DNA of 22,551 bases, taken from the IMG/VR virus record IMGVR_UViG_2534681934_000013; one strand, given 5' to 3'. This stretch comes from a virus (lineage: Duplodnaviria > Heunggongvirae > Uroviricota > Caudoviricetes). Below the pieces are notes generated by a model. The model was not told the origin of the DNA and did no database searches. It saw only the letters and a program-made list of their open reading frames with translations. Shown here in pieces: positions 713-21,612 of the stretch. Position 1 is the first letter of the stretch; each line of letters starts with the position of its first letter. Made by a program: the position numbers and the translations under genes.

Positions 713-3700
713 ATGGCGACGTTACGTGAACTGATTATCAAAATTTCGGCAAATTCACAGTCATTCCAGTCGGAGATCCAGCGGGCGTCCCGTATGGGCA
801 GTGAATATTACCGGACCCTGCAGAATGGCGGGCGTCAGGCCGCTGCGGCAGCCCGGGAGCAGCGACGTGCCCTGGCAGAACTGAACAGCCAGTTGACGGA
901 AATTCGCGGTTCTGCTGTCGGAATGGCTGGCGCATTTGCCGGTGCCTTTGCCTCCGGACACCTGATTTCACTGGCGGATGAGTGGAGTTCCGTAAATGCC
1001 CGTCTGAAACAGGCATCACAGTCATCCGATGAATTTTCGTCATCACAGAAAGTGCTGATGGATATCAGCCAGCGGACAGGCACGGCATTTTCGGATAATG
1101 CGGCCCTGTTTGCCCGTTCGGCTGCCTCGATGCGTGAATATGGTTACAGTGCCGGTGATGTACTGAAGGTGACGGAGGCCATTTCCACGGGGCTGAAAAT
1201 CTCCGGTGCCAGTACGGCTGAGGCGGGTTCGGTGATCACCCAGTTCAGCCAGGCGCTGGCACAGGGTGTGTTGCGCGGTGAGGAATTTAATTCGGTCAAT
1301 GAAAGTGGTGACCGGATCGTACGTGCACTGGCTGCGGGTATGGGCGTGGCCCGTAAAGATCTGAAGGCAATGGCGGATGACGGAAAACTGACAGCGGATA
1401 AAGTGGTCCCCGCGTTAATCAGCCAGCTGGGGATATTACGTGATGAATATGCGGCCATGCCGGAAACGGTTTCCAGTAGTATCACGAAGGTGGAAAACGC
1501 CTTTATGGCCTGGGTGGGCGGTGCGAATGAGGCCAGCGGGGTGACAAAAACGCTCTCCGGCATGCTGAACGGTGTTGCCGGACAGATTGATAATGTGGCA
1601 ACAGCCGTGGGCGCGCTGGTTGCCGTCGGGGTTGCACGTTACTTTGGCAATATGGCCTCCGGAGCGATGTCTGCCACGGCAGGACTTGTGACGGCTGCAC
1701 GTAATGAAGTTGCACTGGCGGAAGCACAGTTCAGGGGAACGCAGATTGCCACGGCGCGGGCAAGGGCAGCCGTGTACCGTGCTCAGCAGGCCGTGGCGGC
1801 AGCCCGCGGGACGGAGATGCAGATTGCAGCAGAGGCCCGTCTGGCGGCCACACAGGAACGCCTGAACAGAAATATTGCTGCCAGAACCGCCGCCCAGAAT
1901 GCGCTGAACAGTACAACGGCGGTGGGCTCACGTCTGATGAGCGGTGCGCGTGGGGCTGGTTGGTGGCGTACCCGGACTGGTGATGCTGGGGGCTGCAGCA
2001 TGGTACACGCTGTACCAGAATCAGGAGCAGGCCAGGGAGTCTGCGCGCCAGTATGCACTGACGATAGATGAAATCGCGCATAAAACGCCGTCAATGTCTC
2101 TGCCTGAAGCCTCAGATAATGAAGGACGAACACGGGCGGCGCTGACAGAGCAGAACCGGCTGATTGATGAACAGGCCAGTCGGGTGAAATCCCTGCAGGA
2201 AAAAATCGCAGGATATCAGTATGTTCTGGCGAACCCGGGCTGGACGACCGGTGACGGATTCATGATAAACCATCTGACATCGGTGAAGACCGTAACGGAA
2301 GGGCTTGCTCAGGCAACAGAGCAGCTTGCCGTTGAGCAGTCCCGTCTGGCACAGATGCAGGAAAAAGCGCAGTCCATTCAGGATGTGCTTGCCGGGCTGG
2401 AAGACCGTCGTGTGGCGTTAATTCGTCAGCAGGCGGCAGAGCAGAATAAGGTGTACCAGTCCATGCTGGTTATGAACGGTCAGTATACGGAATTCAACCG
2501 TCTGCTGGGGCTGGGGAATGAACTGCTTCAGCAGCGGCAGGGACTGGTGAATGTGCCGTTACGGCTGCCACAGGCCACTCTGGATGATAAACAGCAGAGT
2601 GCCCTGACAAAAACAGAGCGTGAGCTGGCCCTGTCCAGACTGAAAGGGGAAGAAAAAGAGCGACGTCCGACTGGGGTATGCGGCGGATGACCTCGGTTTT
2701 GTGGGGGATCCGTATCAGGAGGCGAGACAACGTTATATCAGTAATGCCCTGGAAGCCTGGCGCAATAACGAGGCGAATAAACCCAAATCCCGGGGTGGAA
2801 AATCAGAGACGGAAAAAGCGGAAGACAGTTTTTCCCGGCTGCTGAAGCAGCAGAAAGAGCAACTGGCACTGGCCGGTCAGAACACGGAGCTGGCGAAGCT
2901 GAAGTACCAGACAGCGCTGGGTGAACTGAAAACCCTGTCGGAGATACAGAAGCAGGAACTGCTGCGCAATGCGGCCCTGATTGACCAGCAAAAAATCCGG
3001 GAGCAGTTGCGGTACCGGGAAGAGACCCTGAAGAATGATAATGTGGCTGCGCGTGCATCAAATGAATCTGAACTGCTGGGGTACGGGCAGGGGGAACGAG
3101 CCAGGGAACGCATGCGGGAGTTGCAGCAGATCCGCGACAGCTTCCGCCAGAAGGATGCGGACCTTCAGTCTCAGTATCAGACCGGGGATATCAGTGAGGA
3201 TTTTTACAGACAGGCGCTGGCACAGAACGCGCAGTATCTGAGCGAACGCCTTAAGGACCAGGCAGTCTTTTATGCCGAATCGGATGTGCAGCGTGCGGAC
3301 TGGCAGAAAGGGCTGCAGGAGGGATTCAGTAACTGGGTGGATAATGCGTCCGATTACGCCTCACAGGCAGCACAGCTGGCGACGGAGGGTATCTCAGGGA
3401 TGGTGAATAACATCACGGAGATGCTGAACGGAAATAAAGTGGAATGGCGCAGCTGGGCCTCATCCGTACTGCAGGAAATATCAAAAGTTCTTATGAATGC
3501 CGCGATTGTCAACGGAATTAAGACGGCGGCAAACGGTATGTCCGGTGCGGGAGGATTTCTCGGCAGCATTGGTGACTGGCTGGGCGGAGCGGTGGCCAAT
3601 GCAAAAGGCGGCGTGTATACCTCGGCAAACCTGAGCGCGTACAGCAACAGCATTGTGGACACGCCCACGTACTTTGCGTTTGCAAAAGGGGCCGGGCTGA

Positions 3701-3915
3701 TGGGGGAAGCCGGACCTGAAGCTATTATGCCCCTGACCCGGGCGGCGGATGGCTCGCTGGGCGTACGCGCCGTGGGCAGTATGAACGGCAGTGCTGGTCT
3801 GGTGTATTCCCCGGTCTACCACATCGCCATTCAGAATGACGGGGCTAACGGACAGATAGGGCCGGAGGCGGCAGGCAGTCTTGTGCAGCTGATTGACCAG
3901 CGGGTGCAGCGGTGA
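713..3915 (+). pseudogene. H: tail tape measure protein (lambda gpH-like), reading frame broken twice
   Basis: Three consecutive ORFs in three frames (713-2071, 1944-2690, 2701-3915). Alanine-rich coiled-coil N-terminus, a hydrophobic segment (LVGGVPGLVMLGAAAWYTLY), and a C-terminus (NKVEWRSWASSVLQEI...IQNDGANGQIGPEAAG) resembling lambda H from memory (WRSFTRSVL...NNDGTNGQIGPAA). Frame changes lie near 1941-1955 and 2644-2690 (A5 run 2653-2657). Confidence 0.75.
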
Positions 3916-3948
3916 TGCTGTCCATGCGACGTGACGGAGGAATGCTGA

Positions 3949-4290
3949 GTGGCTGAGATAAAAACGCTGCATCTGGTCCCGCGTGAAGGGATGCAGGTGA
4001 GTGAGAAGCCGTCGGTGGTGAGGGTGCGGTTTGGTGACGGTTATGAACAGCGCCGCCCCACAGGGCTGAATCCTCAACTGAAGACGTTTCAGGCGGTGTT
4101 CCGGGTGACGGATGAGTCAACCCGGCGCTGGCTGGATGAATTTTTATCCTGGCATGGTGGTTACCGTGCCTTTTTGTGGCGACCGCCGAAACATAACCGG
4201 ACGGTGAGGGTTGTGTGCCGGGAGTGGAGCGTCACGGATAACGCCCGGTACAGTGATTTCAGCTGTACGATAGAGCAGGTGGTGAACTGA
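3949..4290 (+). CDS. M: minor tail protein M (lambda gpM-like)
   Basis: 113-aa product with motifs VRVRFGDGYEQRRPTGLN and FSCTIEQVVN matching lambda M as recalled (VRKVRFGDGYSQRAPAGLN...EFEQVVN). GTG start with GGAGG 8 nt upstream. Confidence 0.85.
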   Translation: MAEIKTLHLVPREGMQVSEKPSVVRVRFGDGYEQRRPTGLNPQLKTFQAVFRVTDESTRRWLDEFLSWHGGYRAFLWRPPKHNRTVRVVCREWSVTDNARYSDFSCTIEQVVN

Positions 4291-4727
4291 TGCAGAATAT
4301 TCATGAAGAAAGCCTGAACGAGTCGGTTAAGTCAGAGCAGTCACCGCGGGTGGTGCTCTGGGAAATCGACCTGACGGTGCAGGGCGGTGAGCGGTATTTT
4401 TTCTGCAATGAGCTGAATGAAAAAAGGGAGCCGGTGACCTGGCAGGGGCGGCAATATCAGGCGTACCCGATTGAGGGCAGTGGCTTTGAGATGAACGGAA
4501 AGGGCAGCAGTGCCCGCCCGTCGCTGACGGTGTCCAATCTGTTCGGTCTTGTCACCGGGATGGCGGAGGATTTGCAGAGCCTGGTGGGTGCCACGGTGGT
4601 CCGCCGCCGGGTGTATGCCCGTTTTCTGGATGCGGTGAATTTTGTGGCGGGCGGTCGTGGTTATCGGGCGGCAGAGGTAAAAAGAATAAAAAAATCCCGC
4701 AGAGTTGCGGGGACAGACAAAGATTAA
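4290..4727 (+). pseudogene. L: minor tail protein L (lambda gpL-like), 3'-truncated after about residue 113
   Basis: N-terminal 113 aa (VVLWEIDLT...GERYFFCNE...VTWQGRQYQ...RFLDAVNFV) resemble lambda L, then the sequence diverges into a short basic tail and stops at 4727; lambda L is about 232 aa. ATG overlaps the M stop (ATGA). Confidence 0.75.
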
Positions 4728-20681: not shown

Positions 20682-20750
20682 AGTGATAGAAGAAAAATCG
20701 AACTGGTTGTTAAAGGGATAAATAATTACCCGGATAAGATTACTGTTACT

Positions 20751-21029
20751 GTGGCACTGGAAATTGGTGGGTATCCGACACTGTTGTTGCCAGATGTGGC
20801 GATTAGTCTTGACCGTACTGAAGGTGCCACGCTGGAGTTTTACGAAGCTGAGGCGAAAAAGCAGGCGAAGCAGTTTTTCATGGATGTTGCTGCCGGGTTA
20901 TGTGAAGGGGATGGTCCGTTACCGGAAAAGCGTCCCGTAATTTTAGAGGCGCAGGATGTGTTGATAACCTACAGAGGAAAACTACCGGGAATAATTACGG
21001 GTTCTCTGAAGACTCCACCGCTGGCCTGA
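20751..21029 (+). CDS. hypothetical lysis-module protein (start uncertain)
   Basis: The frame is open from directly after the holin stop (20682) but has no canonical start until GTG 20751; the upstream in-frame peptide (IELVVKGINNYPDKITVTV) looks protein-like. Confidence 0.35.
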   Translation: MALEIGGYPTLLLPDVAISLDRTEGATLEFYEAEAKKQAKQFFMDVAAGLCEGDGPLPEKRPVILEAQDVLITYRGKLPGIITGSLKTPPLA

Positions 21030-21079
21030 AGACTTAACATATCCAGGGATTTGAAATCGATAAACCCTGATAAATATCC

Positions 21080-21612
21080 ATGAACGCAAAAATCAGATAC
21101 GGCCTGTCGGCTGCCGTTCTGGCGCTGATTGGTGCAGGGGCGTCTGCGCCTGAAATCCTCGACCAGTTTCTGGATGAAAAGGAGGTAACCACACCACAGC
21201 ATACCGTGATGGTGCGGGTATCTGGACCATCTGCCGTGGAGCCACCCGGGTGGATGGTAAGCCTGTTATTCCTGGCATGAAGCTGTCGAAGGAAAAATGC
21301 GACCGGGTTAACGCCATTGAGCGTGATAAGGCGCTGGCATGGGTGGAGAAAAACATCAGAGTGCCGCTGACCGAACCCCAGAAAGCGGGGATCGCGTCAT
21401 TCTGTCCGTACAACATTGGCCCCGGTAAGTGTTTCCCGTCGACGTTTTACAGACGGATTAATGCAGGAGATCGAAAAGGTGCCTGCGAAGCGATTCGCTG
21501 GTGGATTAAGGACGGTGGCAGGGACTGCCGTATTCGCTCAAATAACTGTTACGGTCAGGTATCCCGTCGTGACCAGGAGAGCGCGCTGGCGTGCTGGGGA
21601 ATCGACAGATAA
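21080..21612 (+). pseudogene. R: SAR endolysin (T4-lysozyme-like, GH24), frameshifted at the catalytic motif
   Basis: N-terminal SAR-like segment (GLSAAVLALIGAGASA) in one frame; the next frame continues with ...GGNHTTAYRDGAGIWTICRGAT...KLSKEKCDRVNAIERDKALAWVEKNI... (the lysozyme E-G-x-Y-x-D-G-x-TIG motif). The frame change is at the G-run 21181-21185. Confidence 0.7.

Follow-up and report, generated by a model that had tools for sequence, protein, structure and literature searches.

In a prophage contig from the DEC4E strain of E. coli O157:H7, frameshifts interrupt the genes for the tape measure protein, J, YdfR and the endolysin. Judging from sequence comparison, these frameshifts are very probably base-calling or consensus errors of the draft assembly and not mutations of the bacterium. 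The initial annotation of this DNA had left two readings side by side, true decay of the prophage or sequencing indels. We favor sequencing or assembly error for all the frameshifts because they are private to this assembly, because the differences are dominated by indels and because their repair gives known intact proteins. Decay is upheld only for an in-frame TAG in rusA and for a deletion in the L/K/I genes.

The contig and its lineage-wide lesions

The window analyzed, 22,551 bp long, is the entire contig AIFO01000027.1 of the draft genome GCA_000249455.2 (2012). The sequencing platform of the DEC4E genome project was presumably flow-based, such as 454. The contig is a mix of prophage copies with a copy switch at its 5' end. 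Bases 1-200 have an exact match to a prophage other than the one matched by 200-6721, and the substitutions clustered at 1-155 agree exactly with that of another prophage copy. At 6721 the contig jumps from J into the early region of another prophage. This junction was absent from all the complete genomes compared, and the chimeric C-terminal ORF of J that spans it (with two candidate starts) was not found in the protein collection. The repressor found in the window is of the CP-933O type (AAG56160.1). The ORFs that represent gene fragments carry DEC4E accessions (EHV15438.1, EHV15440.1, EHV15443.1, EHV15469.1 and EHV15470.1). In the protein look-up the fragment proteins of the broken genes were found in the DEC4E draft assembly only, and the intact proteins neighbouring them on at least 990 contigs each. 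A closed chromosome of DEC4E itself exists (CP038398; PMC10758439), a PacBio assembly for which MiSeq reads and Pilon were used in polishing.

Two of the lesions in the window are widespread. The first is in the following gene:

14628 to 14933, plus strand: rusA with an in-frame TAG at 14931-14933, corresponding by alignment to Gln102 of the 119-aa relatives

This stop codon had been pointed out in the initial annotation, and the alignment confirms it. Its exact 101-aa product is present on at least 999 contigs and is identical in strain NE92, where it is annotated as RusA. The second, the L/K/I deletion that leaves a truncated L, is found on 891 contigs. The TAG is a real allele of the lineage, outside the artefact, and the L/K/I deletion is a real lesion. 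Neither is unusual, and many genomes have them annotated already. The L/K/I deletion is a genuine lesion that was missing from the initial list.

These shared lesions speak for genuine decay, that is, for real, recent and strain-specific frameshifts that inactivate tail and lysis genes of defective DEC4E prophages. Besides, the J, portal and capsid genes of polished relatives are annotated as frameshifted, and homopolymer slippage is a natural mode of mutation. Asadulghani et al. are said to have found in 2009 that O157:H7 commonly carries defective lambdoid prophages in which genes are frameshifted. That O157 prophages do carry genuine lesions such as the rusA TAG and the L/K/I deletion counts against an artefact. 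Even so, we consider decay an unlikely explanation of the frameshifts, on the grounds presented below.

Frameshifts in tail and lysis genes

We compared the sites with a reference panel (9-12 reference loci), derived from 19 other loci that exact-protein look-ups of the 616-aa esterase and of the repaired tape measure protein gave, none of them in the closed DEC4E assembly, and with complete E. coli genomes. None of the six coding lesions had an exact match in 5,426 complete genomes, including those of the clade-mates NE92, F6667, 7636 and 2571, which argues against decay. The reference sequences of NE92, F6667 and 2571 were assembled from PacBio data, and Illumina reads were used to polish them. 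Between 230 and 610 records from complete genomes were identical to the 101 nt around the coding lesions apart from the indel. A control segment from the lesion-free stretch gave exact matches, with 502 records at identities of at least 99%. At each lesion site the relatives have one uninterrupted ORF, and the reversal of eight indels mends the frames of the tape measure, J, ydfR and endolysin genes. A comparison with close relatives had been proposed in the initial annotation; by both the panel and the 5,426 genomes, it shows the coding frameshifts to be private to the DEC4E draft assembly.

The same data bear on functional recoding, in which the breaks would be programmed frameshifts and the full-length proteins would still be made. 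Programmed -1 frameshifting is indeed used in tail gene clusters (G/GT), and a site of this kind is located upstream of the lesions, at about 340-380, beside an A6 run. However, the relatives have single uninterrupted ORFs at all the sites, no lesion is conserved, +1 and -1 shifts are mixed and no slippery motif is common to them. We regard recoding as extremely improbable.

The tail tape measure gene has three lesions:

713 to 3956, plus strand: gene for the tail tape measure protein, broken by three single-base indels into the ORFs 713-2071, 1944-2690 and 2701-3915
1950, plus strand: first tape measure lesion, one G more than in the aligned close relatives (GCGC[G]TGGGG)
2663, plus strand: second tape measure lesion, one A more than in the aligned close relatives (GAGCG[A]CGTCC)
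3907 to 3908, plus strand: third tape measure lesion, a missing G (GCAGGCGG changed to GCAGCGG), by alignment to close relatives

The extra G, which shifts the frame by +1, was found in none of the 12 panel loci and in none of the 1185 complete genomes holding the segment, and 574 records have the same 101 nt but for this base. It is located one base upstream of a G4 run, adjoining it and not inside. The extra A (0/12 panel loci, 0/728 genomes with the segment) follows 6 nt after the A5 run 2653-2657, whose length is that of the references, and is beside position 2664, where the references have C or T depending on the prophage copy. The missing G, with which the last 15 codons of the gene are replaced or truncated, was likewise absent from the 12 panel loci and from 1155 genomes, and 610 records differ solely by the indel. 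When the bases at 1950 and 2663 were dropped and a G was added at 3908, a single ORF of 1080 aa was obtained, identical to the intact tape measure protein on 27 contigs. The initial annotation had proposed two lesions here, one near 1941-1955 and another at the A5 run. The first falls in the proposed range, next to the G4 run; the second exists, but at 2663 and with the A5 run unchanged. The one at 3908 had been overlooked, so that the count by alignment is three.

In the J gene two private differences are close together:

4915 to 6755, plus strand: J (tail tip/host specificity), frameshifted at 5849 and cut off at 6721
5847 to 5860, plus strand: patch in J with two private differences, CCC to CC at 5847-5849 and TTTC to TTCC at 5860

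Both the missing C and the T-to-C change at 5860 differ from 11 of 11 panel loci, and the best match to the J segment among 678 genomes (3060 places) was 98.0-98.1%. Adding a C at 5849 gives one J ORF of 613 codons that runs into the junction. The missing C had been predicted near 5850, and the alignment places it at 5847-5849, with the substitution at 5860 as an addition.

The ORF after the holin had been listed as a possible case because of its A6 run (20692-20697), and it turned out to hold a cluster of three indels at 20688-20698:

20686 to 21029, plus strand: ydfR (DUF1327), with the start codon and the frame destroyed by three indels within 11 nt

They are an extra A at 20688, with which the ATG is lost, a contraction from A6 to A5 at 20693-20697 and a missing A at 20698. 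A private substitution is also present at 20778. Among 1306 genomes the best match to this segment was 97.3%, which corresponds to the three gaps. Repair gives a 114-aa YdfR and, if 20778 is reverted too, the protein found on 859 contigs. Three indels in 11 nt at the start of ydfR are implausible as independent mutations, and this is another point against decay.

The last of the broken genes is the endolysin:

21080 to 21612, plus strand: endolysin (lysozyme), split into ORFs of 66 and 120 aa by the loss of one A at 21182/21183

The change is from GGAAGG to GGAGG, a 2-mer contraction. It was found in none of 1047 genomes (5369 places), and 364 records differ by the indel alone. The repaired gene codes for a 177-aa lysozyme, with the identical protein on 929 contigs. 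The frameshift had been correctly located at 21181-21185 in the initial annotation, although the lost base is an A and not a G.

Spectrum and distribution of the private differences

Further private indels were detected outside the genes:

16005, plus strand: non-coding contraction from G8 to G7, differing from 9/9 panel loci
20031 to 20053, plus strand: two non-coding contractions directly behind the gene of the 616-aa esterase (20031, A7 to A6; 20053, A5 to A3)

The last two differ from 10 of 10 panel loci. Another non-coding indel, at 6734, is private on n = 1, with a single reference covering the site. Over the contig, the differences private to it (against 9-12 reference loci) were 12 indel events versus 2 isolated substitutions, each of the latter no more than 80 nt away from an indel. 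For 13 events, 11 or more indels would arise with a probability of 6e-10 if indels make up 10% of mutations, and of 7e-5 if they make up 30%. The background of substitutions expected under relaxed selection was not found, beyond those two isolated private ones; this spectrum is the reverse of natural mutation spectra and, again, argues against decay.

Five of the 12 indels are in runs of at least 5 bases, which comprise 2.9% of the bases (P = 1.3e-5), and the homopolymer length changes were contractions in every case. At 1950, 2663 and 20688 a new base has been inserted, whereas at 3908 and 21182 a 2-mer has been contracted. The initial description of the lesions as sited at homopolymer runs holds therefore for these five in long runs and fails for 1950, 2663, 3908, 20688 and 21182. 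The location of 1950, 2663, 3908 and 21182 outside long homopolymers counts against an artefact.

The location of the indels along the contig was also uneven. In the single-copy stretch 6735-16004 (9.27 kb, with 48 runs of at least 5 bases) we found none of the 12 (P = 0.0017). Per genome, the lesion-bearing segments are found at 1 to 6 places by the median and at 2.4 to 5.1 by the mean, and the indels are restricted to segments of which O157 prophages have several copies. An unhit stretch of 9.3 kb with 48 long runs in it speaks against decay. Alternatively, the DEC4E lineage might have passed through a transient mutator phase, deficient in mismatch repair, or its prophages might have been replicated in an error-prone way, either of which would give a real burst of indels. 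When mismatch repair is lost, +/-1 indels in homopolymers become more frequent, and the run-length changes seen here are all contractions in runs. However, many transitions would be expected where only two private substitutions were seen, the single-copy stretch should have been hit while 0 of its 48 long runs were changed, and in three of the events a base was inserted where there is no run. This explanation seems to us very unlikely.

A second contig of the same draft

The identical lysozyme lesion is also present on a second DEC4E contig, AIFO01000022.1, which belongs to a different prophage copy. In the 2 kb that it has in common with AIFO01000027.1 there are six private contractions, and in its next 8 kb there are none. 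The contraction at 20031 is common to both contigs; the one at 20053 is not. A short called ORF on AIFO01000022.1 was considered as a possible broken terminase and rejected: with GTG as the start codon its frame is uninterrupted, therefore there is no lesion.

In principle, a lysozyme lesion found in two contigs could be a real mutation moved by gene conversion, and this counts against an artefact. It is accordingly conceivable, if quite unlikely, that the indels are real, a strain-specific burst of frameshifts in the multi-copy prophage modules of DEC4E of which some were spread by gene conversion. If this were true, tail and lysis genes of several DEC4E prophages would have been disabled together. 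For decay, the finding is adverse, with identical lesions in two different prophage copies and each copy having private contractions of its own too.

Probable origin in sequencing or assembly, and significance

Coming back to errors of the draft, we infer that they originated in the reads or in the assembler. The contig would have been built through tail and lysis modules that have several near-identical copies among the lambdoid prophages of DEC4E, and the consensus would have taken up single-base indels in these multi-copy segments. Most of the errors would be contractions in or beside homopolymers and a few would be spurious single-base insertions, so that the reading frames would be broken in the deposited record only.

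There is precedent for errors of this kind. The error rates of 454 are position-specific, can exceed 50% at some positions and may prevail in a consensus, and its indels are tied to homopolymers and to carry-forward and incomplete extension (PMC3116506). Two further papers describe flow-sequencing errors as homopolymer-linked single-base gaps that lead to frameshifts (PMC3568017, PMC3711422). The pattern in our contig resembles the homopolymer errors of 454 and Ion Torrent in its single-base gaps and in the frameshifts of a draft consensus. The paired changes in J (CCC to CC at 5849, TTTC to TTCC at 5860) are like miscalls of a flow signal, and the same goes for the cluster of A errors at the A6 run of ydfR. 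Unlike those errors, the ones seen here are limited to multi-copy prophage segments and do not affect all homopolymers. Since the errors are limited to multi-copy segments, the building of a consensus from mixed copies is at least as likely as raw chemistry.

The prophage has the gene modules and the host lineage of the defective lambdoid prophages of O157:H7 (Sp of Sakai, CP-933 of EDL933). Like them it carries real inactivating lesions, each present on roughly 900 to more than 1,000 contigs. However, the genuine lesions of those prophages are inherited and common to relatives, while the frameshifts flagged here are in no other genome. The early EDL933 reference offers another parallel. Latif et al. 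reportedly corrected, in 2014, frameshift errors of that first-generation reference by resequencing EDL933. There too, prophage repeats were trouble spots of the assembly, and resequencing of the same strain removed apparent pseudogenes. For DEC4E a resequenced genome exists as well (CP038398).

Were the lesions real, this would merely be one more defective prophage in a lineage known for them. If they are errors, as is very probable, caution is needed with the pseudogene and "defective prophage" calls made from GCA_000249455.2 and similar early draft EHEC genomes, which would overstate decay in the repeated lambdoid modules.

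Composition of the contig

The window's ORF fragments match exactly the E. coli DEC4E proteins EHV15438.1, EHV15440.1, EHV15443.1, EHV15469.1 and EHV15470.1. These are encoded on AIFO01000027.1, which is 22,551 bp long, so the window is one whole contig of this draft O157:H7 genome (GCA_000249455.2). Sequence comparison divides it into two parts, listed here with some genes of the second:

3-6721: lambdoid tail module (G/T chaperones, tape measure, M, truncated L, J)
6722-22551: early and lysis region of a CP-933O-type prophage
6816-7454, minus strand: CP-933O-type repressor gene
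16849-17101: phage-borne tRNA-Met(CAT) (tRNA-Ile in the NE92 annotation) and tRNA-Arg(TCT), downstream of an AraC-like gene

The reference panel consisted of 9-12 loci taken from complete genomes, including the clade-mates NE92, F6667 and 2571 (PacBio assemblies, Illumina-polished), and differences from all of these loci were considered private. Several complete O157:H7 genomes have a prophage to which the first part was 99.7% identical, and the second part was 99.84% identical to NE92, with zero substitutions across 6722-17278. At the start of a TerB-family gene (17279-17295) there is a 17-nt patch with 7 substitutions and 1 indel compared to NE92. The same patch is found in 7 of 10 panel loci, and it marks an allelic or mosaic boundary rather than an error.

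Frame-disrupting lesions

Translation of every frame recovered all the frame breaks flagged in the initial annotation, and alignment with relatives placed the exact lesions, with some corrections. The tape measure gene is broken as described, by three lesions (+G at 1950, +A at 2663 and -G at 3908) and not two; the A5 run to which one had been assigned is unchanged, the extra A being located 6 nt beyond, at 2663. In J the missing C was confirmed (from CCC at 5847-5849), together with a T-to-C change 11 nt past it. The suspected ORF after the holin is ydfR, and it is indeed disrupted, by three indels inside 11 nt (20688-20698) by which the ATG is lost and the A6 run shortened. The endolysin has lost one base as proposed, an A (GGAAGG to GGAGG) instead of a G. 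Private indels also appeared in non-coding sequence:

6734: T7 to T6 (a single reference covers the site)
16005: G8 to G7
20031: A7 to A6
20053: A5 to A3

Compared with the panel, the window had 12 private indel events and only 2 isolated substitutions, both at most 80 nt from an indel. Assuming that indels are 10-30% of mutations, the probability of such a ratio is between 6e-10 and 7e-5, which makes it very unlikely under real mutation. The location at homopolymers, claimed for the lesions in general, holds for 5 of the 12 indels (runs of at least 5 bases, 2.9% expected, P = 1.3e-5) and fails at 2663; all run-length changes are contractions. None of the 12 was located in the 9.27 kb between 6735 and 16004 despite its 48 runs of at least 5 bases (P = 0.0017). 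O157 genomes hold this stretch in a single copy, and the segments with lesions are multi-copy; their median per genome reaches 6 places for the lysozyme.

We searched 5,426 complete E. coli genomes with queries of 101-111 nt having each coding lesion at the center. The lesion-bearing segments were found in 678 to 1,306 genomes each, and none of these genomes had an exact match to any coding-lesion query. For the single-indel sites (1950, 2663, 3908 and 21182), 230 to 610 records were identical save for the indel. For a control segment taken where the window is free of lesions, exact matches were obtained, and 502 records reached at least 99%. When the eight coding indels were undone, single ORFs were regained. 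The repaired tape measure (1080 aa) and lysozyme (177 aa) are identical to proteins on 27 and 929 contigs respectively, and the repaired YdfR to one on 859, provided that the neighboring private substitution was also reverted.

Origin of the frameshifts

Our analysis indicates that the frameshifts are very probably sequencing or assembly artefacts. The initial annotation had left the choice between prophage decay and sequencing indels; absence elsewhere, spectrum, location in repeats and repair all favor error for the frameshifts, and do not support decay there. The draft was presumably made with 454 reads. The signature, with indels over substitutions, run contractions and spurious bases beside runs, is typical of flow-based chemistry, and the changes at 5849/5860 in J would be an under-call paired with an over-call. 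This chemistry produces position-specific indel errors, which can reach more than 50% at some positions, tied to homopolymers and to carry-forward or incomplete extension (PMC3116506). The account with the best support is that consensus errors entered the draft at places where reads of several near-identical prophage copies pile up; their cause would lie within the reads or the assembler.

A second DEC4E contig, AIFO01000022.1, carries the lysis region from a different prophage copy. In the 2 kb common with the window it shows six private contractions, and in the next 8 kb none:

AIFO01000022.1, 1-2000: A7 to A6 twice, G5 to G4, T5 to T4, GG to G where the antirepressor gene starts, plus the lysozyme lesion of the window

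Both contigs share the lysozyme lesion and the same A7-to-A6 change, and several other runs differ between them. Other lysozyme alleles in other assemblies (including PA22 and TW11039) give frameshifted fragments of 62-66 aa with the same out-of-frame tail as the window, and two versions of 176-177 aa have a second, compensating shift. The site (21176-21186) is a purine tract, GAAAAGGAAGG, that looks like a recurrent error site, and the recurring break fits an error-prone sequence context. This recurrence is weaker evidence than the other lines, because a real mutational hotspot at the tract would give the same picture. Genuine strain-specific decay of the DEC4E prophages appears improbable; a closed genome of this strain exists (CP038398; PMC10758439). 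A mutator episode or programmed frameshifting fit the lesions poorly.

Mixing of prophage copies

Substitutions at 23, 29, 60, 62 and 155, the only further ones that had seemed private, set positions 1-155 apart from the prophage matching 200-6721, and they are variants of another prophage copy. Positions 1-200 are 100% identical to a second copy carried by those complete genomes (strain 319 has it at 2.88 Mb and the copy matching 200-6721 at 1.78 Mb), so the contig switches between copies. At 6721-6722, J is cut near codon 603 and joined to sequence 95 nt downstream of the repressor gene, with at most 1 nt shared between the two sides. The join was found in none of the 5,426 complete genomes; either the contig is chimeric or DEC4E has a deletion of its own. 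OI-57/CP-933O was reported in one paper to be absent from DEC4E.

Inherited lesions

The in-frame TAG noticed in rusA (14628-14933) is present, a CAG to TAG change at codon 102, where 119-aa relatives have Gln102, and homology continues past the stop. At least 999 contigs carry this allele, and RefSeq genomes annotate it as a complete 101-aa RusA. L (4290-4915) is truncated to a 145-aa product, with K and I absent ahead of J; since the allele recurs on 891 contigs, the deletion is real and lineage-wide. Both lesions are inherited in this prophage family, and in relatives the J (C-terminal), portal and capsid genes are genuinely broken. Prophage decay thus happens in this lineage, but elsewhere than at the flagged frameshift sites. 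Pseudogene calls lacking read support should be distrusted in the repeated prophage modules of this draft and of comparable early draft genomes of EHEC.
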